Source of the DNA: an uncultured Alphaproteobacteria bacterium
GTDB taxonomy: Bacteria > Pseudomonadota > Alphaproteobacteria > Sphingomonadales > Sphingomonadaceae
Assembly: GCA_963838365.1 (NCBI GenBank)
Contig: CAWIQR010000012.1
Location: 119,072 to 183,071, forward strand
Length of the DNA: 64,000 bases
Direction of reading: 5' to 3'
Position numbers and translations under genes: made by a program. A model generated the notes under the pieces. That model did no database searches. It was given only the letters and a program-made list of their open reading frames with translations, and was not told where the DNA came from. Of this stretch, positions 11,194 through 63,999 are shown piece by piece; the first letter of the stretch is position 1; each line of letters starts with the position of its first letter.

Positions 11194-13213
11194 TTACTCC
11201 AATTCCAGAATCACCGCATCCACCGCCAGACTCTCGCCCTCTTTTGCGTTGATCTGCGCAATGACGCCTTCCTTTTCGGCGCGCAGGATGTTTTCCATCT
11301 TCATTGCCTCGACCGTGGCCAGAGGCTGTCCGGGCTGCACGCTGTCGCCTTGTGCCACATGCAGTTTCATCAGCATTCCGGGCATCGGGCAGATCAGCAT
11401 TCGTGAAAGATCGGGCGGCACCTTCTCGATCATGTGCCGGGTATAAGGGGCGACGTGGTAGGGCAGGACCAGCGCCTCGTGAGAGGCGCCTCGGGTCGTC
11501 ATCCGCCAGCGCACGCCGATACGTTCGATCTGCGCCGTAAAATCCGTGTCTCCGGTGACGCGGGCAATCGGCATACCGACTTCCCAATCCCACGTTCCGC
11601 GCACAGGTTTACCGTCGACGCTCGCACCGCCTTCTTCGAGCAGCACATCGAATTCGCGCATCCCAATCGCGACCATCCATCGCGAAGGTGGATTGTCGAT
11701 CCCGTTGAGTTGGCCCGAAATACGGCGCGAGCGGACCTGCTGGGTAAATTCAGCCCCCGCAAACAATGCCGCAAGCTGGCGTAGCCATGCATCGTCGGCG
11801 GGCGCGCCTCTGAACCCGTCGGGATATTCCTCTGCGATGAACCCAGTGGTGAGCTCGCCCGAGCGAAAGCGCGGGTGCTGCATGATCGCGCTCAGGAAGT
11901 CGACATTGTGGCCCAGCCCCTTGATCCGGAACGCATCGAGCGCCTCGATCTGCAAGTCGGCGGCTTCTTCACGGGTGGGTGCCCAGGTAATCAGCTTGGC
12001 GATCATGGGGTCGTAGAACATGCTGACCTCACCGCCTTCGAAAACGCCGTCGTCCACACGGATGCCGTCTACGCCGCGCCGCCCGTTTGCGCTGCCATCA
12101 TGGCTCCAGCCTGCCAATGGCGGCTCGTATTCCACCAACCGACCGGTCGATGGCAGGAACCCGCGATAGGGGTCTTCGGCATAGACGCGGTTTTCGATTG
12201 CCCAGCCGTCGATGCCGATATCGTCCTGCGTCATGGTCAGTTTTTCACCGGCAGCCACGCGGATCATCTGTTCCACCAGATCAATGCCGGTAATCGCTTC
12301 TGTCACCGGATGTTCGACCTGAAGCCGGGTGTTCATTTCGAGGAAATAGAAGCTCTCGCCGCTTGGGTCCGCGCCGCTGACGATCAGTTCGACCGTGCCG
12401 GCGGAATGATAATCCACCGCGCGGGCCAGTGCGACGCATTGTTCGCCCATCGCCTTGCGCATAGTGGGCGTGACGAACGGCGATGGCGCTTCCTCGACGA
12501 CCTTTTGGTGGCGGCGCTGGATCGAGCATTCGCGCTCGTTGAGATAGAGAATAGTGCCGTGCTTATCGCCCAAGATCTGGATTTCGATGTGGCGCGGATT
12601 CTCGATGAATTTCTCGATGAAAACGCGGTCATCGCCGAAAGGAGTTGAGCCCTTCGCGCTTGGTCGCCTCAAACCCTTCGCGCACGTCCTTTTCCGACCA
12701 CGCCAGGCGCATCCCTTTACCTCCGCCACCGGCGCTGGCCTTCATCATCACCGGGTAGGTGATCTCATTGGCGATCTCGACTGCGTGTTCGGTATCGCGG
12801 ATTTCTCCGACGAAACCGGGCACGACATTGACGCCCGCTTTCAAGGCCAATTTCTTGGATTCGATCTTGTCGCCCATCGCCGCAATCGCGCCTGCGGGCG
12901 GGCCGATGAAGGCGATGTTCTCCGCCGCCAATGCCTCAACGAAACTCGCGCGCTCGGACAAAAAGCCGTAGCCGGGATGCACCGCTTCTGCCCCGGTTTC
13001 CTTACACGCGGCGATGATCTTTTCCGGGATCAGATAGCTTTCCGCAGCAGGCGATGGCCCGATATGCACCGCCTCATCCGCCATGCGCACGAACGGCGCA
13101 TGGCGGTCCGCATCGGAATAGACCGCGACGGTGGCGATCCCCATCTTCTGCGCCGTCTGGATGACGCGGCAGGCAATTTCGCCGCGATTGGCAATCAGGA
13201 TTTTGGAAAACAT
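11194..13213 (-). CDS. pccA: Propionyl-CoA carboxylase alpha subunit (biotin carboxylase plus biotinyl domain); apparent +1 indel at about 12638-12640
   Basis: [31 protein letters not shown], then after the frame change [26 protein letters not shown] and EAMKM (biotin lysine). Confidence 0.93.
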
Positions 13214-55555: not shown

Positions 55556-57085
55556 TTATTCCAGAATGTATCGCACTCGCAGCGTAATTGTCCCGCCGCT
55601 GGCAAAGGCACCGTCCGGTCGAACCCTAAAATCGGTTACCGCCGTATCGCAATCGTCGGCATCGGGTGTCGGTGTATAGCCGAAACTTGCGCCATTATTG
55701 TTGGAAAACTCCAGATCGTCTGTCGACGATGCGATCGTCGCGAACCCATAGGTCACGCCCGAATTGCCGCCGGGATCGTTGAACACGATTGGTCCGCCAC
55801 TGCGTGCGATGCGACACAACTTTACGTCGCCAGGCCCCTGATCCACCACGGACAGGCTATCGGCATCGGCCGCGCCCGGTCCGGTGTTGGACACCGTGAT
55901 AAGGTATTCAACCAGCGCACCGGGAATTGCCTTTGGGTTGGTGTTGCCATTGACGGGATCCGCGATGATCGCGCTCACCTTTGTAATCGACAGATTGGGC
56001 GTTGGTCGGCGCGTATTGGTAAAGGTGCAGACCAGCGCCTCCCCGAATTCCAGCACACCGAGATTGAAGCTGGTCGCAGCAAGATTGTTGGGTAGTGCCG
56101 CGCGCGTTGGTCCGGCGGAATTCACGCAGGTCAAAGATGAGGTGTACTGCGCCAGCCTACTGGGGCTACCCGCAGCCATCGTCTCACGCAAAGTGATCGG
56201 GAGACCCGCGGCCATGACAATCTGGCGGGTCGAGAACGGCCCGTTGCCGCTGCCGGTGGTGGTGCCGCTGGTGATGACGCTGCCATTGCCGGTCGAAAGA
56301 ATTTCAAACCGGAACTGGTCAGCGGAATTGACGCGCGGGCCGGTGATCGTCTTCTGCAACCGGATCGAGGCAAACCGCACTGCGAACATCACCCCCTGAA
56401 GTCCGCCTGCCACGGTCTCAACCGTCACAGTAGTCGGGCTGCTTGTGCTGAGGATATGCGCGCCGACAGTCCCCGTTATCCCGGTTATCGACGCATTGCG
56501 CGTGCCAACACCGGCAAGTGTGGGAAATCTGTTACCACTGGTGGGCGGCACGCTGTCCAGCAGCTGCCAGTTTCCTCCATTGGTGCCCATCCTCAGCGTT
56601 TCGCCCTGGTTGCTCGATTCTGCATCGGCGACGATGAACGCAAAGACCGAAGCACTCGCACCGGCGGGCGGGACGATAGTGATCCCGGAAAGTGTAATTG
56701 TGCGCGTACCGGCTGACGCAGTGTAGAGGGCTGGTCGACCGGGAATGCCGATAAATGAGGAGTTTCCGATCGCCGCTCCAGTCCATGATGGCGCGGTGAC
56801 GCTGTTATAGGCCGTTCCCGTGCCGCCGGTTACGCGCGCGTTGAACGAAACGATCGAGCCATCCGGCAATGTGAAGCTGAGGTTCTGACCCGATGCCGAC
56901 CGTGCGGTGGCATCGTTGTAATTGGCAAGGTTCAGCCAGCAATAGGTCTGCCAGCTTGGCGGTGCGCTACCCTGCGTCGCCGCCTGCCCACAATCCTGCG
57001 CCTGCGCCGCATTGGACCATATCAACCCGAACATCATCAGCGCGGTTGCGATCAGCCTGCGCAGGGACCGATTTGTAAGCATCAA
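55556..57085 (-). CDS. Exported adhesin-like protein: CshA-like N-terminal domain, SpaA/prealbumin-like domain, C-terminal DUF11 domain
   Basis: Signal peptide (AQAQ); WQTYCWLNLANYND N-domain; RLQKT...LRET...CTFTN domain; NLSITK...PGALVEYLITVSNTGP...VVD DUF11 pattern. Confidence 0.75.
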   Translation of the reverse strand: MMLTNRSLRRLIATALMMFGLIWSNAAQAQDCGQAATQGSAPPSWQTYCWLNLANYNDATARSASGQNLSFTLPDGSIVSFNARVTGGTGTAYNSVTAPSWTGAAIGNSSFIGIPGRPALYTASAGTRTITLSGITIVPPAGASASVFAFIVADAESSNQGETLRMGTNGGNWQLLDSVPPTSGNRFPTLAGVGTRNASITGITGTVGAHILSTSSPTTVTVETVAGGLQGVMFAVRFASIRLQKTITGPRVNSADQFRFEILSTGNGSVITSGTTTGSGNGPFSTRQIVMAAGLPITLRETMAAGSPSRLAQYTSSLTCVNSAGPTRAALPNNLAATSFNLGVLEFGEALVCTFTNTRRPTPNLSITKVSAIIADPVNGNTNPKAIPGALVEYLITVSNTGPGAADADSLSVVDQGPGDVKLCRIARSGGPIVFNDPGGNSGVTYGFATIASSTDDLEFSNNNGASFGYTPTPDADDCDTAVTDFRVRPDGAFASGGTITLRVRYILE

Positions 57086-57088
57086 AGT

Positions 57089-60000
57089 CTACCTTTCCAG
57101 CCCGAGGAAACTGAATGTGTCGGTGTCAAATTTGAGGCGCACCGCGGCGAAAACGCCTTTGTCGGTGTTGCGCGCGGCGGCAAAATCTCCGTCACGGAAG
57201 CCTTCGACATTATAGCCAACCGTCAACAAAATGTCCTGCGCAGGTGAGAATCCGACGGTCGGCCCATAAGCAAAGCTGGTGACCTCATCTTCCAGATTGG
57301 CTCGCACGGTGGCGCTGGCACCGATTTCAAACTTGTCGCTGATGCCAAGGCGCGCATCCAGACCCGCCAGCACTGTGGTCCCGGAAAATTCCGTGTTTCC
57401 AAACTCATCAAAGTTGTAACGCGCGCCCACGAACAGTGTGTATTCGTCGCGCCGCACCTGTTGGTCGATGCCAAATTCGTCCTCGTCCCAGCCGCGCGGG
57501 CTCCAATTGGTCGAAAGGCTGCCGACCAGACGGCGCGACGTCGCATCGCCGTCCACGATCAGCGCGGTGCGCCCTGCCCCCGTTACATCGCCCGCAACCG
57601 CGCCAGTTACCGCGTCGCTGCGAAATTCCAGCTTGCCCAGCATGGCGACTTCGCTGGCGTCGGGGCGGTGAGCAAAGGCAATGCTGGCATCGAAGATTTC
57701 AGTAACCGCACCGTTGAAGTTTTCCGCCCTCGTCCAGGTGACGCCAGATCCGGCGACGCTGCCCTCACCCAATTGACGGATGCCGCCAAAGGTGATGCCG
57801 GTGCGGTCGGCCTGTTCGCCGTCGCGGTATTCGCCTCGCGCGGTCAGGCTCCAGCGGTCCTTGCGCCATGACGCACCCAAGGTGAGAGCGGTAAAATCTT
57901 CAAACAGCAGGCCCCCGGTCAACTGACCGCCGCTGGCCGCCGGTTGCAGCGGGTTCACAAGGTCGGAAACGTCGGGCGCGCCGTTCAGGGTGCGATTGCC
58001 ATCAACCGTCGCGTCGATGGCAAACTCTGGCGTCAATTGCAGGGTCTGCGCCACACCGAATGCAGCGAAGGAACGGTTACCAAATTCGCCGATGGTTTCC
58101 TGACCCAGCGTGGTGACAATCTGACCGCCCTGCCACGGCGTCAATTCGACCCCGCCACGCAGCTGACGCGAGTTGAAGTTTTCGCCATCGGCAATTTCAT
58201 AGGTGCCCACCAGCCGCACATCCTGTGTCAGCTGATAGCGCAGGCCAAGCCGGTGACGTGCAGGCAGATCGAGGCTTTCCGCCTGATCGAGCGCAATCGC
58301 GGTGCTGGCCGAAATTTCAAGCGCGGCGTCGAACAGCCGTTTCGTCCCGCCCGCTTCGAGCACGGTCGAGGTGTTGGTGGTGCCATCGGCAAGCTGGTCG
58401 TCGAAATGGGCAATGCCAATACGCAGATCCGTGGTCGGACGCTGCAATGTCAACTGCGCCTGTGCGGCGCGGCGGCGGCTGGCATCGGTCAGGCTGTCAT
58501 CCTGCCACACACTGCCCAGCACGCTGAGATTTTCGGTGAGCAGCACGCGGCCATCCACGCCAACCTTGCGGCGACCCTGTTCGACCGCGTTCTGTTGGCC
58601 AATTCCGTAATCGCTATCCAGCTGGCGAGCATAGGCCAGCACGTCGAGCTTGCCCGTCTGGTGCTGCGCTTCGACGATCCAGCCGGTTGCGGTGTTGCCC
58701 TCGGATTGGCTGACGCCCAGCTCCGCGCGCACTTCGGTGCCCTCGCCAATCTGTGCGCGCAGATCCAGCGCTCCGATATCAGTGCGTGCACCATCACCCT
58801 TGTCGGTGATGGCGGTTGCGCCGATACGGATATTGCCATTTGTGCTGGTCCAATCCGTGCGCAGACCTGCATTCATCTGCGCTTCGCCGGCACCATCGGT
58901 TTCGTATTCGACGATGATGAATTGCGGATTGAGGTTTTCATCGCGGCTCAGCACCGGCTGCGCAAAGCTGATCGTACCCGACAGCAGATCGAGATCAAAG
59001 TCGATGAAGCGCGTCAGCACCCGCCGCGATACGATCAATTCGGACCGGAAGCGGTCGCGCACTTCGATCGTCACCTGTTCGGTGTTCGGAATGATCCGTC
59101 GGCTGCGTAGTTGATAGGGGCCGGTGATGCCCTGGCCCTGAATTTCCTCGCGCTGAAGGCGGCTGGAAACCTCGGCGGCAAAGGCCTGCGCCTTTACCTG
59201 GCCAAAGCGCGCCTCACCTTTTACGCCCGTCGCGGTGCGGTTGTAACGCGCCAGCTGGGTCTGATCGAACGCGGTCTGGAAATCGCCATACAGCGCATAG
59301 AAAGTTGAGGTTTCGATACGCACATACAGCTTTTCACGGCTGGCCGCATCAAACCGGCGCATCGATCCATCGGCGAACACGGTGTAATACGCGTTTGGAT
59401 CAATCGCGCCCAAAACACGCTGGTCCTCGCGCTGTTTGGCGCTGTCATAGGCAAGCGTGACGAGATATTTGCCCAGCACCCGGCCCTTTGCATACAAAGC
59501 GACGCGAGCGTCCTTGCCCAGATCGCTGTCGAACCGCCCGGTGCGTTCCATATTGTCAGCCACGCTGCGCGCGCCCGCTGTGCCTTCGGCAAGGCCAACG
59601 ATGGTCCATTCGATATCGCCCGGCTCAATCCACGCTTCCAGCTCTTGCTGGCGCACAATCTGACCATCATTGAAGCTGAAATTGAGCCGCAGCGAGCCGG
59701 AAACCATCGTCGGCGCCAGTTCTATGAGCGCAATGCCGTCCTCGCCTTGCGTTACCCACCGCGCGGAACTGGCACCAAACCCGGTAAGCTGGTTCAGCTG
59801 CTGACGATCCAGCTGCTCGGCGCTTTCATAGGGGGCGTTCAGCGAAAACTCGCCCGCGATACCTTCGCGCAAGGGGCGATTGTTGCGATCGAGCACCCGT
59901 ACGGCGATGACCGGGCGCGTGCGGCCATCGGCGACGAGGTTGGAGAGTTCCGGCACCAGTTCGACCTTGGTCGGGGCAGTGGTGAAGAATACTTCGCGTG

Positions 60001-62299
60001 AGATCGTCTGATTGACCACGCCAAACGAATTGATGATGTCTGCTTCGAGCAGCGTGCGCTCATTCACCAGCGGCACGCCGCGCCAAAGGCTGACGGCAAA
60101 GCGTTCGGAGGAGTTCTGCGTGCCGTCAAAGGCCAGCTGATCGACCGGCTTGCCATTCACGCGCAGGGCAATCGTCTGCCCCTTGCGATGACGGATCGCG
60201 ACCTTGATGGCGGGCGCGCGCGGATTGGCATCGACGCTGGGCGAAAGCCAGCCGTCCGGACCATCGCCCTGCGCCAACCAGTCTGCATCGGCTGCGGGGG
60301 CGCTTACAATCGGAGCCAATGCGGTGGCGCTCGCGGTCACGGAACCCTGCGCCACCGGCAAATCTCCATTGGCCAGTTCGCTTCCCTCGGCGATATCGTC
60401 GATTGCACGAGCAATTCCACCATCGGGAGTGGTTTCGGCCTTCTCGGCGATCTCGTTCAGCCAGCCTTCGGGCACGGTTGCATGAAAATCGGCGACAACC
60501 AGGCTTCCACCCTGCCCGATGACAAAGCGCGAGCTGACGCTGCCCGCATTGCGAGTGCTGCGGTGGCAGTCAATCAACTCGGCCCCTTCGGGCAGGGTCA
60601 TGCGCGAAACGGCGACCACGTGTGTTCCGGGCACTACGCCCTCGAAATGATAGCGGCCATCGGCATCGGTGATTGCAAAACTGCCGTCTTCCATGATCAC
60701 GCGCACGCCGGGGATGCCGGGGCGTGGATCGTCGATGGAGCATGCACCGGCGGTGATACGCCCGATCACGGTCATCCGGTCGGCGATTGTCTCGCGAACA
60801 ATGTCGACCGGCACATTGGCGCGCGCGGTGCGGCCCAGCAGATCGGTCACGACCGCTTCATTCACGGCGCGACCCGGAGGCGCATCGGGACGCACGGTCA
60901 TTGCATAGGTCACCCGCGCGCTCACACCACCTGCCAGCGTGCCTACATTCACTTCAAATCGGCTACCATCAGGCGCAATCGTAATCGCTTCCGGCACGGC
61001 AACGCCGTTCACGCGAATTGTGTCGGGTCGCAGGCGAAGCCAGCGCGATGGCGTGTCGGCGATTGTCACATCGCGTTTGGCGCGGGCCGGATCGGAATTG
61101 CGCGCGGTAACCGAATAGAACACCACATCGCCGGGCACCGCCTGAGCGCGCGAGGCGGTCTTGGTCAGGCCAAGGTCCAATCCCGAGCGGTCCAGCGGAA
61201 TATCGATCTGCACGGGGATCGGATCGGTCAGCGCAAATGCCGCGCCATACGAACCCTCCCGAATGACGAACGCGCGGCCATCGGGGCGTGCTATCTGCGC
61301 GATCTGGCCGGGTTGGACCACGGATGGCGCGGAATAGGGATCGGGCGGGGTAATTTCCAACCGGTACTGCCCCAGCAGAGTGAGTGGGAACCAGAATTCG
61401 CCCACCCCCAGATCGGTCACTCGGCCAGCGCCATCGGTTACAGACGCGCCCGAAAGTACGCTGGAAGGCCAAGGCGTTACACCATCTTCGGCAAAGACGG
61501 TCGCGGGCTGACCGGTCACTGCGTTAACCAGGGTCACGCGCGCGCCATTTATCGGTTCTCCGGTTTCGCTGTCGAACACCACTCCGAACGGATCGGCCAG
61601 CACTTCCACCGAGGTTTGCGCGATAATCGCGGTCGATCCCGGCAGTGATGCGGCGACGGTGATGGAAGCACCATCAATGATGCTGAGGCGGCAATCGTCC
61701 TGCACAGGCGCTGGCGGAATGCGCGCAGTGTCAATCTGGCCGACGAAGAGCCCCGTGTTCAGTCCCGTTTCAAAAATCGTTTCGGTCTCACGGTCCCCGG
61801 TCGAGGTGGTGATAACCACTTCAAGTTGATCAATGGCATTCCGATCAATGTTCGCGGCGGGCGCTTGGACCTCGAAAATCAGGGTCTGGCCTGCACGCAA
61901 CGTGCTGGTCTGCTGCACCGTCAAATTCAATGGCTGAGTATCGGGTTTGGCCTGCCCGCTGGGCGCAGGGCCGGTGCTCTGACCGGGCCGCCCGATACCA
62001 TTGCAGACTGGAGCGCGAAAACTCAGCTGCGTGCCGCTTTGCGAAACCGGCCGAAAAGCGCGGATTTCCGGGGGCGGCACCGTAACATCGAAGGTTACTT
62101 CGTTCGAAGTCGTGTTAACTGCGCGCCCAGCGAAATCCCACCGCGCTGTTGCAGTGTTGGTCACGGTTCTGATGGTCTGCCGGGCTTCTTGCCCAGTGGT
62201 ATTGTCTTGTGCGCGCGCCTCCCCTCCGGACACGCCAAAAGGCAGCAGCACTAACGCTAATGCTGCTGCCAGACGGCCCAGAGGGGAGTTTACACGCAA
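57089..62299 (-). CDS. Very large exported protein with Ig-like/DUF11/SdrD-B-like domains and a predicted C-terminal outer-membrane beta-barrel
   Basis: 1736 aa; signal peptide; LGLTKTAS...PGDVVFYSVTARN DUF11; PGIPGVRV...ITDADGRYHF; long C-terminal region of alternating amphipathic strands ending VRLKFDTDTFSFLGLER. Confidence 0.78.
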   Translation of the reverse strand: MRVNSPLGRLAAALALVLLPFGVSGGEARAQDNTTGQEARQTIRTVTNTATARWDFAGRAVNTTSNEVTFDVTVPPPEIRAFRPVSQSGTQLSFRAPVCNGIGRPGQSTGPAPSGQAKPDTQPLNLTVQQTSTLRAGQTLIFEVQAPAANIDRNAIDQLEVVITTSTGDRETETIFETGLNTGLFVGQIDTARIPPAPVQDDCRLSIIDGASITVAASLPGSTAIIAQTSVEVLADPFGVVFDSETGEPINGARVTLVNAVTGQPATVFAEDGVTPWPSSVLSGASVTDGAGRVTDLGVGEFWFPLTLLGQYRLEITPPDPYSAPSVVQPGQIAQIARPDGRAFVIREGSYGAAFALTDPIPVQIDIPLDRSGLDLGLTKTASRAQAVPGDVVFYSVTARNSDPARAKRDVTIADTPSRWLRLRPDTIRVNGVAVPEAITIAPDGSRFEVNVGTLAGGVSARVTYAMTVRPDAPPGRAVNEAVVTDLLGRTARANVPVDIVRETIADRMTVIGRITAGACSIDDPRPGIPGVRVIMEDGSFAITDADGRYHFEGVVPGTHVVAVSRMTLPEGAELIDCHRSTRNAGSVSSRFVIGQGGSLVVADFHATVPEGWLNEIAEKAETTPDGGIARAIDDIAEGSELANGDLPVAQGSVTASATALAPIVSAPAADADWLAQGDGPDGWLSPSVDANPRAPAIKVAIRHRKGQTIALRVNGKPVDQLAFDGTQNSSERFAVSLWRGVPLVNERTLLEADIINSFGVVNQTISREVFFTTAPTKVELVPELSNLVADGRTRPVIAVRVLDRNNRPLREGIAGEFSLNAPYESAEQLDRQQLNQLTGFGASSARWVTQGEDGIALIELAPTMVSGSLRLNFSFNDGQIVRQQELEAWIEPGDIEWTIVGLAEGTAGARSVADNMERTGRFDSDLGKDARVALYAKGRVLGKYLVTLAYDSAKQREDQRVLGAIDPNAYYTVFADGSMRRFDAASREKLYVRIETSTFYALYGDFQTAFDQTQLARYNRTATGVKGEARFGQVKAQAFAAEVSSRLQREEIQGQGITGPYQLRSRRIIPNTEQVTIEVRDRFRSELIVSRRVLTRFIDFDLDLLSGTISFAQPVLSRDENLNPQFIIVEYETDGAGEAQMNAGLRTDWTSTNGNIRIGATAITDKGDGARTDIGALDLRAQIGEGTEVRAELGVSQSEGNTATGWIVEAQHQTGKLDVLAYARQLDSDYGIGQQNAVEQGRRKVGVDGRVLLTENLSVLGSVWQDDSLTDASRRRAAQAQLTLQRPTTDLRIGIAHFDDQLADGTTNTSTVLEAGGTKRLFDAALEISASTAIALDQAESLDLPARHRLGLRYQLTQDVRLVGTYEIADGENFNSRQLRGGVELTPWQGGQIVTTLGQETIGEFGNRSFAAFGVAQTLQLTPEFAIDATVDGNRTLNGAPDVSDLVNPLQPAASGGQLTGGLLFEDFTALTLGASWRKDRWSLTARGEYRDGEQADRTGITFGGIRQLGEGSVAGSGVTWTRAENFNGAVTEIFDASIAFAHRPDASEVAMLGKLEFRSDAVTGAVAGDVTGAGRTALIVDGDATSRRLVGSLSTNWSPRGWDEDEFGIDQQVRRDEYTLFVGARYNFDEFGNTEFSGTTVLAGLDARLGISDKFEIGASATVRANLEDEVTSFAYGPTVGFSPAQDILLTVGYNVEGFRDGDFAAARNTDKGVFAAVRLKFDTDTFSFLGLER

Positions 62300-62321
62300 A
62301 GTCGTTGCCTATCCGTCAGTC

Positions 62322-63416
62322 TTACGGTGTCGGCGTGCCCGACACGACGGCCGGGATTGTGACTTCAAAGCTGAGACCGGACGAACTGCCGCCCGATACC
62401 GTGCTGAGAGTGCCGGTGACACGGTTGTTGCCGCTGTCAAAGCTGCCCTCGGTGGCATTGGTCGGAGCCGCACCACCAGTGCAGGTTGCATCGGTCCCGC
62501 TGATTGCGACCGCCGTGTTGCGCAGGATCGTGCCGGTGTTGAAGGTCACGTCGCTGGGCAGATCATCGACCACGCTGATGTTGGTCGCGTCCGCACCACC
62601 CGAAGCGTTAGACACCGCGATGCAGTAACGGATCACCGCGCCCGGAATTGCTTTCGGGTTGCTGGTGCCGTTGACCGGATCGCTGACGATGAGGCTGGAT
62701 TTGAGCACGCTCACTTCCGCGCCATCGACGTTGAGCGTACCCGATGCCGAGAACGCACCGTCATTGGCAGCATCGCCGGCAAGCCCGCTCGAACCATCTG
62801 CCAGAGCGGTATCGACGACCGACTGATCGGCAGAATCGCCTGCGCTTTCAGTCAGTTCTGCACCAAGTCCAGCTGCACCCGCTGCATGGGCGTTGGCATT
62901 CAGGATGACATCGAAGCTGTCACCGTTGATCGCTGCCAGTTCGACGTTAGCCACTACAAAGACGCGGCGAGTTTCATCCGCAGCAACTTCGTCGAGGAAG
63001 GTTACAACCTGTTCGGTGCCGTCAAACGTGCCGTTGCCGTTCGCTTCATCGACATATATCGTGAAGCCGGAGATGTTGCCAGCGGTGCCAGCCGCCAGGG
63101 TGGCGGTGAGGTCAAGATCGACCGTGTCGTTGGACAGGTTGGTTACATCGAAGCTGAGGAAGGCGTCCTGTTCACCCGGATTTACATCCTTGGGCGAGTC
63201 CACTGCCGAAACCGTCACGTTGACGCGGCGGTCAACGGCGAAGGTATCGGTGGCGATTATCGGGGCCTGCACATCGCCGCCGACCGAGTAGGTCACTTCG
63301 ACGGTGTTGGTGATGTCCGTGCCAGCGCGGATTCCTTCCGCCATGGCCGGGGCGCTGGACATGACAACAAGCGCAGCCGCGCTTACCGCCCCCAGCAATT
63401 GGGTCGTTCGTTTCAT
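62322..63416 (-). CDS. Exported DUF11 domain protein, candidate major fibre subunit
   Basis: RBS AAGGA, signal peptide (APAMA), N-terminal GTDITNTVEVTY, VDEANGNGTFD Ca-binding-like loop, C-terminal VLKS...PGAVIRYCIAVSN...VVDDLP. Confidence 0.8.
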   Translation of the reverse strand: MKRTTQLLGAVSAAALVVMSSAPAMAEGIRAGTDITNTVEVTYSVGGDVQAPIIATDTFAVDRRVNVTVSAVDSPKDVNPGEQDAFLSFDVTNLSNDTVDLDLTATLAAGTAGNISGFTIYVDEANGNGTFDGTEQVVTFLDEVAADETRRVFVVANVELAAINGDSFDVILNANAHAAGAAGLGAELTESAGDSADQSVVDTALADGSSGLAGDAANDGAFSASGTLNVDGAEVSVLKSSLIVSDPVNGTSNPKAIPGAVIRYCIAVSNASGGADATNISVVDDLPSDVTFNTGTILRNTAVAISGTDATCTGGAAPTNATEGSFDSGNNRVTGTLSTVSGGSSSGLSFEVTIPAVVSGTPTP

Positions 63417-63486
63417 TTCTCTGGTCCTTTGCGTGTGCCGCGCGTCAATCATTCCGCCCGCACGGCTTGGCGGTCATCTCCGCAAG

Positions 63487-63999
63487 TCAGCGAATGATCA
63501 CGGGAAAGCCGATCCGGCCGCTTTCGCCCGGCGCGATGGATGCAATCGTCCAGCGGACATGCGTCACATCGGCGTGCGTGGCCGCGCGGGTGGCGCCTGA
63601 TTCTGTGGCTACGACAAGGGTGTCCAGCGTGCCGAAACTCTCGGCGCCATCGACGGAGACGATCAGCGCAGGATCGGCATCGGGCGCTAGGCGCACCGAT
63701 TTGTTCAGCGGGCTGGTACCGGTTACATTGGTCGCGGCCTCGGCCCCTTCGTTGGCGTAGATCATGCCGAAACTCAGTTTGGTGCCGGGCGTGTATTCGG
63801 TGGCTGTCGCCAACTCGCTCGTTTCTTTGCCGGTTGCATCGGTGGTTGTGACAAGAGCCTTCACATCGCTTTTCAGGCTGACTTTGGGCGCAGCGTCTCC
63901 ACTAGCCGATGCCAGCGGCGTCTCGTCCTGAGCTGAGGCAGGAGCAGCAAGCAGGGCCATCACGATTAACGCAGCGGCAATGTTTTTCCATTTGTTCAA
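63487..63999 (-). CDS. Exported single DUF11-like domain protein
   Basis: Signal peptide (ASAQ); PGTKLSFGMIYANEGAEAATNV...VSVDG...VTHVRWT...PGESGRIGF. TTG at the window edge, so the true start may lie outside. Confidence 0.7.
   Translation of the reverse strand: MNKWKNIAAALIVMALLAAPASAQDETPLASASGDAAPKVSLKSDVKALVTTTDATGKETSELATATEYTPGTKLSFGMIYANEGAEAATNVTGTSPLNKSVRLAPDADPALIVSVDGAESFGTLDTLVVATESGATRAATHADVTHVRWTIASIAPGESGRIGFPVIIR

Follow-up and report, generated by a model that had tools for sequence, protein, structure and literature searches.

The window analyzed here, meaning the whole 64,000-nucleotide (nt) stretch of DNA at C12:119072-183071, ends in an operon of co-oriented minus-strand genes from the 2.9-Mb genome (61% guanine plus cytosine [GC]; completeness, 95%) of an Erythrobacter-type bacterium whose nearest protein relatives belong to Erythrobacter and Qipengyuania. 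We propose that the five genes of this operon, g0 to g4, encode a surface fiber that is built by the completion in trans of a naturally split CLIPPER domain (DUF11, CnaA-like) and is probably locked by Lys-Asn isopeptide bonds, a reading to which we give a probability of roughly 0.6. The five genes are the following.

64029-65009 (extrapolated window positions; locus L001 11101-12081; contig C12 183100-184080), minus strand: g0, 326 amino acids (aa), first gene of the operon, outside the window
63487..63999, minus strand: g1, 170 aa, secreted single acceptor-like CLIPPER domain, without donor hairpin
62322..63416, minus strand: g2, 364 aa from ATG, donor hairpin, complete immunoglobulin (Ig)-like middle domain, and truncated CLIPPER acceptor domain
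57089..62299, minus strand: g3, 1736 aa from TTG, signal peptide, donor hairpin, stalk domains, and predicted giant C-terminal beta-barrel
55556..57085, minus strand: g4, 509 aa, CshA_NR2, SpaA_3, and truncated CLIPPER acceptor domain, no donor hairpin

Open reading frame checks bore out the coordinates, lengths, and gaps of the four genes of the original prediction, with 70, 22, and 3 nt separating g1, g2, g3, and g4, and its surmise that more genes may lie beyond the window edge proved correct: g0 begins 29 nt past that edge, upstream of g1, and the operon thus has five genes rather than four. Signal-peptide-like N-termini were recognized by eye on g0 to g4, in keeping with the Sec signal peptides first assigned to the four, and by the same reading no lipobox Cys follows the signal peptide in any of the five.

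DUF11 has been renamed CLIPPER, and its crystal structure is that of a CnaA-like domain with an intramolecular Lys-Asp-Asn isopeptide bond (PMC12617251). The g3-family profile matches the CLIPPER crystal structure 9IFR (E = 1.1e-8), and the spacing of the triad in our proteins agrees with that of the solved domain. A Lys-Asp-Asn triad complete within one domain was found in the internal domain of g3, where K379 (in 'LTK'), D415 (in 'IAD'), and N480 (in 'AVNEAVV', with the last strand after it) are nearly invariant in the family; this complete domain reads '...VTYAMTVRPDAPPGRAVNEAVV...VPVDIV'. In g0, g2, and g4, the C-terminus is formed by a CLIPPER domain that holds the isopeptide Lys and the catalytic Asp (K227/D267 in g0) and no Asn, the last two, Asn-bearing strands being absent. 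These truncated ends stop right after the preceding strand, at '...ITFGVTID' and '...LRVRYILE' followed by the stop in g0 and g4, respectively, and at '...LSFEVTI' in g2. After their signal peptides, g0, g2, and g3 start with a hairpin that resembles the missing CLIPPER strands: 'AGTLIENTATATY...SNTVTVRV' in g0 (its start also being given as 'ADGVSAGTLIENTATATY...SNTVTVRV'), 'AGTDITNTVEVTY...' at the mature N-terminus of g2, and 'TVTNTATARW...SNEVTFDVTV' at that of g3. Where a chaperone-usher-like system would have an Ig fold missing its last strand and an N-terminal extension on the neighbor, we find a domain missing its last two strands and a matching N-terminal hairpin.

63231..63335, minus strand: g2 donor hairpin, residues 28-62, 'GIRAGTDITNTVEVTY...DTFAVDR', with the Asn37 codon at 63306-63308
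62358..62723, minus strand: g2 acceptor domain, residues 232-353, with Lys239 (62700-62702) and Asp284 (62565-62567)
62075..62182, minus strand: g3 N-terminal donor hairpin, residues 40-75, 'RQTIRTVTNTATARWDF...TTSNEVTFDVTV'
60842..61177, minus strand: g3 internal complete CLIPPER/DUF11 domain, residues 375-486, triad Lys379-Asp415-Asn480

The triad is conserved across the split. We compared 80 related loci (species genomes and close Sphingomonadales relatives) and distant loci drawn from separate genome searches and a plasmid collection. When 86 sequences of g2 and g0 from the related loci were aligned, only 11 columns proved invariant, and N37, K239, and D284 are three of them. Of the acceptor domains sampled from g0, g2, and g4, nearly all retain Lys and Asp; alignment gaps and one Asn (L089) account for the exceptions. 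The 11 subunit and tip proteins compared from distant loci all have the Asp, and about 8 show the Lys, which in the others falls in a gap or a misregistered stretch of the alignment. On the donor side, the g3 hairpin columns 'N.A...W...SN' are at least 90% conserved among 41 full-length homologs, and the consensus 'IxNTA...SNxV' persists down to about 30% identity.

Profile comparisons point the same way. Against curated cutoffs of 24.6 bits for Pfam DUF11 (PF01345) and 24 bits for TIGR01451, g3 matches DUF11 at residues 375-486 (32.9 bits) and CarboxypepD_reg at residues 528-566, and g2 passes TIGR01451 (33.7 bits) and falls below the DUF11 cutoff, with a match spanning positions 9-75/114 of the profile only. 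In g4, matches to CshA_NR2 (59.6 bits) and SpaA_3 (123.7 bits) accompany a weak, subthreshold DUF11 repeat, and g0 and g1 alone have no family match in the Pfam scan. DUF11-type Ig domains had been assigned to all four genes in the window; strictly this holds for g2 and g3, and for g1 and g4 weakly or by pattern, and the common theme is now refined to a CLIPPER domain split between consecutive proteins. When the hairpin was appended to the C-terminal domain, the Pfam DUF11 score rose from 24.9 to 31.1 bits for g2 (reversed hairpin, 25.3), from 18.4 to 23.1 bits for g0 (reversed hairpin, 19.5), with the end of the match moving from position 83 to 105 of 114, and from 18.1 to 21.8 bits for g4. 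The gain is thus 4 to 6 bits for the true hairpin versus 0 to 1 bit for the reversed control. When searched with a purpose-built hidden Markov model (HMM) of C-domain plus hairpin, the complete DUF11 domains of giant adhesins and g3 orthologs align continuously across the junction, which no alignment to the reversed control crosses. The hairpin part of this permuted HMM also picks out the N-terminus of one g3 ortholog (L077) and that of a distant subunit. A phmmer search with permuted g2 and g0 against giant tandem DUF11 adhesins returned nothing; the profile version worked, weakly. The residue pattern, that is, the invariance of N37, K239, and D284, the acceptor Lys and Asp, and the losses in g1 described below, is stronger evidence than the permutation scores.

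The two subunit proteins, g0 and g2, are paralogs with 32% amino acid identity; g2 had been taken as the major subunit, and g0 adds a second subunit gene outside the window, so that either of the two may be the major one. A profile search of the PDB with g2 and g0 gave a marginal protease match as its sole result. AlphaFold2 (86 sequences) modeled g2 with a mean predicted local distance difference test (pLDDT) of 92.3 and a predicted template modeling score (pTM) of 0.81, with a pLDDT of about 96 in the hairpin strands (residues 34-41 and 53-60), and Foldseek related the model to tandem Ig domains, chiefly those at the C-terminus of antigen I/II adhesins, which bear isopeptide bonds, and to pilin fusions as well. 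So confident and rigid a monomer, hairpin included (pLDDT 96, pTM 0.81), is what docking within the same chain would give, and it bears on an unlikely alternative in which g0 and g2 complete their own C-domains in cis as circularly permuted, self-stapled CLIPPER domains. They would then be separate surface or periplasmic proteins, and only the g3 hairpin and the open domain of g4 would pair in trans, making an adhesin of two pieces, anchor and head; a variant has a fixed g3-g0-g2-g4 stalk with one copy of each. Three donors and three covalent acceptors do allow such a one-of-each chain, and distances of the hairpin and of the protein's own C-domain covary (0.63 for g2 and 0.42 for g0), as they would be expected to in any case for parts of one gene. 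However, a complete Ig domain directly after the hairpin is the topology of a tandem adhesin, and on domain order the hairpin would sit at the far end from its own C-domain; moreover, subunit genes are duplicated, with one to three per locus, which suits shaft subunits better than a short complex.

We read g1 from its sequence as an acceptor-like domain, CLIPPER-like rather than PapD-like. It has no match to DUF11 alone and scores 24.0 bits over profile positions 8-105/114 once a hairpin is appended. In 19 g1 orthologs, the Lys position is occupied by S, G, or N and the Asp position by N or G; in five distant g1-like proteins, the Asp position is non-Asp in four and Asp in one (L118), and the Lys position is poorly aligned. 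Because both Lys and Asp are absent, g1 may hold hairpins noncovalently, as a chaperone or cap. Distances of g1 and of the g2 hairpin covary (0.57 with barrel distance controlled), a value that is confounded by gene adjacency and that we do not use as evidence.

The losses of Lys and Asp in g1 also bear on the nature of the bond. It is conceivable, and in our judgment quite improbable, that the same head-to-tail chain forms without a covalent step, by two-strand donor complementation as in chaperone-usher pili, with Lys, Asp, and Asn serving in folding and hydrogen bonding. Some distant donors have Ser in place of Asn, isopeptide bonds are absent from some DUF11 domains (PMC12617251), and oligomers of the protein BsaA are stable in sodium dodecyl sulfate (SDS) even without the bond (10.1101/2024.11.04.621531). 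Against this, all three triad positions are invariant across two paralog families, their spacing is that of the solved CLIPPER domain (PMC12617251), and the two acceptor-side residues, Lys and Asp, are missing precisely from g1, the one acceptor-like protein that would be expected to avoid being trapped.

The protein g4 is read as the tip because it has no hairpin. Its parts are as follows.

56381-56947, minus strand: g4 CshA_NR2, residues 47-235
56009-56368, minus strand: g4 SpaA_3, residues 240-359, triad pattern K244-E301-N358
55559-55993, minus strand: g4 truncated CLIPPER acceptor domain, residues 365-509

The acceptor Lys and Asp are conserved among 13 g4 orthologs. In most related loci g4 is conserved only over its last approximately 150 residues and the N-terminal adhesin part is exchanged, the N-terminal approximately 360 residues (CshA_NR2 plus SpaA_3) being common to about 15 of the 80 loci (L017-L096); about 12 of the 80 lack an adjacent g4 homolog. 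The g4 protein is thus modular, and the variation looks like the swap of an adhesive head. Over 59 residues, the C-terminal domain of g2 is 56% identical to that of g4, and two acceptor domains so alike could receive the same donor.

At the other end of the chain, g3 is read as base and anchor because it combines a hairpin, a complete CLIPPER domain only, and a C-terminal barrel. Its stalk consists of the complete CLIPPER domain, a CarboxypepD_reg/CnaB-like domain, and Ig-like domains, of which Big_1/invasin-like ones adjoin the barrel.

57092..59602, minus strand: g3 C-terminal module, residues 900-1736, predicted outer-membrane beta-barrel of about 35 strands
58898..59236, minus strand: beta-sandwich inserted near the start of the barrel, g3 residues ~1022-1134 (model residues 143-255), short strands

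AlphaFold2 modeled residues 880-1736 (42 sequences, down to 34% identity) as almost all beta (mean pLDDT, 71; pTM, 0.69), with about 35 long strands and, following the first few of the barrel, an inserted cluster of short ones; with Foldseek in agreement, the C-terminal beta-barrel first predicted for the 1736-aa protein is supported. On the model it looks like a very large, new type of outer-membrane barrel. The inserted sandwich is the most conserved block of the module in family alignments and is a candidate plug-like element. The best PDB matches of the barrel in Foldseek are Deinococcus SlpA, LptD, TonB-dependent receptors (BtuB), the FimD usher, SprA of the type IX secretion system, and MtrB, at template modeling (TM) scores of about 0.2 to 0.25; because such values say only "large barrel," we claim no homology to usher, LptD, or SprA. 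The last approximately 1,100 residues of g3 match no Pfam family, the barrel module is likewise without a Pfam family in g3 and four homologs, and a single-sequence search of the PDB with g3 gave no match. Among 1.84 billion representative proteins, the module was found in 2,808 clusters at 50% identity with E ≤ 1e-3 and in 1,108 with E ≤ 1e-30, in almost all of them at the C-terminus of proteins of 1,500 to 2,900 residues. Some homologs carry an OmpA peptidoglycan-binding domain, or tetratricopeptide repeats (TPR) and a small barrel, after the module, which places the C-terminal end of the barrel in the periplasm.

Database names for g3 homologs vary. Some are annotated automatically as "isopeptide-forming domain-containing fimbrial protein," and several homologs of the module (P0306 and the plasmid matches H5, H6, and H11-H13) are named "TonB-dependent receptor" or "outer membrane protein transport protein." We considered g3 as a TonB-dependent receptor and rejected it: neither the plug (PF07715) nor TonB_dep_Rec (PF00593) matched g3 or four homologs at E ≤ 0.1, CarboxypepD_reg being the only domain in common, and the TonB-type names probably arise from this domain. 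These NCBI labels, together with a related two-gene layout that has a giant DUF11 adhesin gene ahead of one for a separate barrel protein, would suit a view in which nothing assembles at all and independent secreted Ig-domain proteins or adhesins merely lie beside a large outer-membrane transporter, their shared N-terminal motif being a tag by which that transporter sorts or recognizes them. We regard this as very improbable, for g3 has no TonB plug or receptor family match, the truncations are systematic, and the N-terminal motif fits the missing end of a CLIPPER domain rather than being an arbitrary tag.

In the assembly that we favor, completion of the split CLIPPER domain in trans, the hairpin of one protein would insert into the open CLIPPER domain of the protein ahead, giving a polar chain in which g3 donates to a run of g2 and g0 subunits, in one or many copies, and these to the tip g4, which would supply the adhesive head; Lys and Asn would then probably form a spontaneous intermolecular isopeptide bond. 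The chain order g4-g2...g0-g3 is a guess. The g3 protein would end the chain, and its barrel of about 35 strands would anchor the fiber to the outer membrane, with the N-terminal stalk of the protein threading the lumen of that same barrel. The barrel is a natural candidate for the exit pore because the g3 stalk must cross the lumen if the g3 hairpin joins the extracellular fiber, and it would be the likeliest exit for the other subunits as well, used tip first and finally filled by its own stalk. In the periplasm, g1 would probably hold the donor hairpins noncovalently, as a chaperone or cap. The parts list first proposed, a small chaperone or cap, a subunit, an outer-membrane platform, and a tip adhesin, fits the predicted barrel, the co-occurrence of the genes, the modular adhesin tip, and the acceptor-like g1 without bond residues. 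A broader claim, to which we lend slightly less than even odds, is that these genes represent an undescribed pilus class of double-membraned bacteria, with tip-first polymerization by reconstitution of split CLIPPER domains without chaperone-usher, sortase, or ATP; intermolecular Lys-Asn self-ligation; a barrel of about 35 strands, used once, that combines the roles of exit pore, terminator, and anchor; and the triad-less g1 as a new kind of hairpin-holding chaperone.

Several points weigh against the fiber, which is proposed here from sequence and predicted structures. The bit-score gains in the permutation tests with Pfam and with our own HMM are modest. The g2 hairpin may, in the AlphaFold2 monomer, dock in cis or pack on the middle domain. 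The N-terminal part of the barrel model is of low confidence, with a pLDDT below 50 for about 150 residues, and one secretin is encoded elsewhere in the genome, so that another export route is possible. The donors with Ser instead of Asn include the g3 of L118 and the 340-aa subunit of L119, and because of this replacement the covalent step may not be universal.

The module recurs as a unit. A synteny survey had been put forward as a check on the four genes, and, the variable tip gene aside, co-occurrence holds: the order and spacing g0-g1-g2-g3 are kept in every one of the 80 related loci with enough upstream sequence, and the gene order also recurs in distant Pseudomonadota in which g3 is 24 to 35% identical. 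One distant genome of 44% GC has the order g4-g0-g1-g2-g3, six more distant loci, including an Acinetobacter plasmid, have the operon core, and other distant loci combine g3 with one or two subunit genes and in some cases a g1-like gene; the number of subunit genes varies from one to three between loci. Among sampled genomes, the module turned up in 52 of 151 from the family, 10 of 401 from the class, and 47 of 401 from the phylum. On Acinetobacter haemolyticus plasmid p4 (L104; CP085288.1, 190-203.5 kb), a g1-like gene stands with a 2008-aa g3, an OmpA protein, and a 978-aa tip. This cluster lies on a mobilizable plasmid beside a transposase, and its subunit gene is split into several short coding sequences and is a likely pseudogene, the other genes being intact.

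Three contigs from metagenome-assembled genomes (MAGs) labeled Marinomonas sp. (L050) and Woeseiaceae/Woeseia (L081 and L096) carry the whole operon, with 54 to 66% identity of g3 over its full length. That g3 is closer in these gammaproteobacterial MAG contigs than in many Sphingomonadales suggests binning contamination or recent horizontal transfer. A genome of the same family (G487) contains two full-length g3 genes, C1:270862-273345 and C1:469745-472243, with 61% and 58% identity in the barrel module, and may carry two such systems. In L105 (Sinorhizobium meliloti plasmid accessoryA, NZ_CP021807.1) and L101, a giant DUF11 adhesin of more than 2,600 aa is followed directly by a separate protein of 1,261 to 1,329 aa, which has only the first approximately 300 residues of the g3 barrel module in common and ends in the canonical C-terminal Phe. 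This two-gene layout may be a sister system; no hairpin/acceptor pattern was seen there.

Upstream of g0, approximately 510 nt of intergenic sequence separate the operon from a divergent DEAD-box helicase gene, and downstream of g4 lie a convergent response-regulator gene and then unrelated enzymes. A direct repeat resembling a CtrA box was found 5' of g0.

65031-65048 (extrapolated; contig C12 184102-184119; L001 ~12103-12120), minus strand: CtrA-box-like direct repeat, 'GCTAAC-N6-CTAACCAT'

The TAACCA half-site of this box stands about 28 nt 5' of the g0 start, and 45 of 65 related loci have a TAACCA in the 120 nt before g0, in most cases near -28. The pattern 'TAAC-N7-TAACCAT' has three occurrences genome-wide, one of them before a small gene that, judged by eye, looks like sciP (DUF1153), a well-known target of CtrA. 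On these motifs the fiber operon may belong to the CtrA regulon. An Rfam scan of the 510-nt upstream region found no riboswitch or other family, and promoter and terminator scans found nothing beyond shuffled expectation. As to gene starts, the database gene call for g3 uses an internal GTG (1720 aa); this start drops the charged beginning of the signal peptide (window 62252-62299), and the upstream TTG (1736 aa) gives a normal one. In g4, an ATG one codon later carries a better ribosome-binding site.

The known Gram-negative routes of pilus assembly are few, namely, chaperone-usher, type IV, curli, type V, and conjugative. If our reading is correct, the operon would represent a new assembly principle that joins donor-strand logic to self-catalyzed covalent ligation, and it would give a function to hundreds of genes now called "hypothetical," "DUF11," or, wrongly, "TonB-dependent receptor." The barrel would rank among the largest single-chain barrels, in a family new to Pfam, and the module is widespread, occurring in about one-third of the sampled genomes of the family and in other Pseudomonadota, Acinetobacter plasmids included. 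Natural orthogonal hairpin/acceptor pairs, if they act as proposed, would also be useful as self-ligating protein tags.

The original prediction saw no PapC/PapD, sortase, type I secretion system (T1SS), or autotransporter signature, and family scans of the operon proteins agree. A PapC/FimD-family usher (PF00577) was absent from the operon proteins and from the whole genome, with a positive Escherichia coli control, and no sortase was found in the genome, with working positive controls. The Pfam scan gave no match to a PapD-like chaperone (PF00345/PF02753) in g0 to g4. No operon protein matched a T1SS or autotransporter family, and g3 and four homologs had no Pfam match to the autotransporter beta-domain (PF03797) or an intimin/invasin beta-domain. 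The C-termini of the operon proteins ('...VTID', '...VIIR', '...GTPTP', '...GLER', and '...YILE') bear no LPXTG-like motif or hydrophobic tail. Type V pili of the Bacteroidota (FimA/Mfa1) have a Cys lipoprotein signal peptide, and their first strand is removed by proteolysis before strand exchange; the operon proteins had no match to the FimA/Mfa family. Nor did they match a TasA/peptidase-M73-type family, and the operon contains no signal peptidase gene of the SipW type that goes with TasA/BsaA fibers, or of any other. Searches of the full-text literature turned up no account of either this operon or split CLIPPER domains, the nearest work being the CLIPPER domain paper, BsaA, the archaeal threads, and the archaeal fimbriae called tafi.

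The parallel drawn at the outset with chaperone-usher pili (FimH-FimG-FimF-FimA, FimC, and FimD; archaic Csu) holds functionally and not as homology. In both (here by our reading of the model), the tip has a binding domain and an acceptor-only domain and no donor, the last subunit stops growth, there is no source of ATP at the outer membrane, and export passes through a large outer-membrane barrel with an inserted beta-sandwich. In contrast, the donor here is a two-strand hairpin rather than one strand, and the subunits consist of CLIPPER domains, which are CnaA-like and carry the isopeptide triad. The barrel is far larger, with about 35 predicted strands instead of 24, and forms one chain with the terminating subunit, and the small accessory protein resembles an acceptor rather than a strand donor.

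In mechanism, the closest likeness is to BsaA of Clostridium perfringens, a TasA-family protein for which "donor-strand exchange and lock" has been described (10.1101/2024.11.04.621531), and to the thread filaments of Sulfolobus, in which strand exchange is followed by an isopeptide lock (PMC9715654). In these as in the proposed fiber, an N-terminal segment enters the beta-sheet of the next subunit and a sortase-free intermolecular isopeptide bond then forms. The likeness is one of mechanism only, since those systems are monoderm or archaeal and of an unrelated fold family, with no outer membrane to cross, no barrel anchor, and no such separate tip and base proteins. Single-chain CLIPPER adhesins, such as the CLIPPER/DUF11 fibrillar adhesin B9T28_05395 of Acinetobacter silvestris from which 9IFR derives (PMC12617251), share a CshA_NR2 head, a Lys-Asp-Asn CLIPPER stalk, and, as in some homologs here, an OmpA-type anchor. 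Their repeats lie in one polypeptide with intramolecular bonds, whereas in this operon every boundary between proteins falls within a CLIPPER domain.

Sortase-assembled pili of Gram-positive bacteria (SpaA and RrgB) likewise have tip, shaft, and base made of CnaA/CnaB-type domains with isopeptide links between subunits, as we propose here. Unlike theirs, the proposed bond would be an autocatalytic Lys-Asn bond in a reconstituted domain, like that of the engineered SpyTag/SpyCatcher pair, and the anchor would be an outer-membrane barrel instead of peptidoglycan. Classical and inverse autotransporters (type V secretion) resemble g3 in having a surface passenger or stalk and a membrane barrel in one chain, with the passenger threading the barrel; the barrel predicted here has about 35 strands versus their 12 to 16, and it would be joined by additional, separately secreted subunits.

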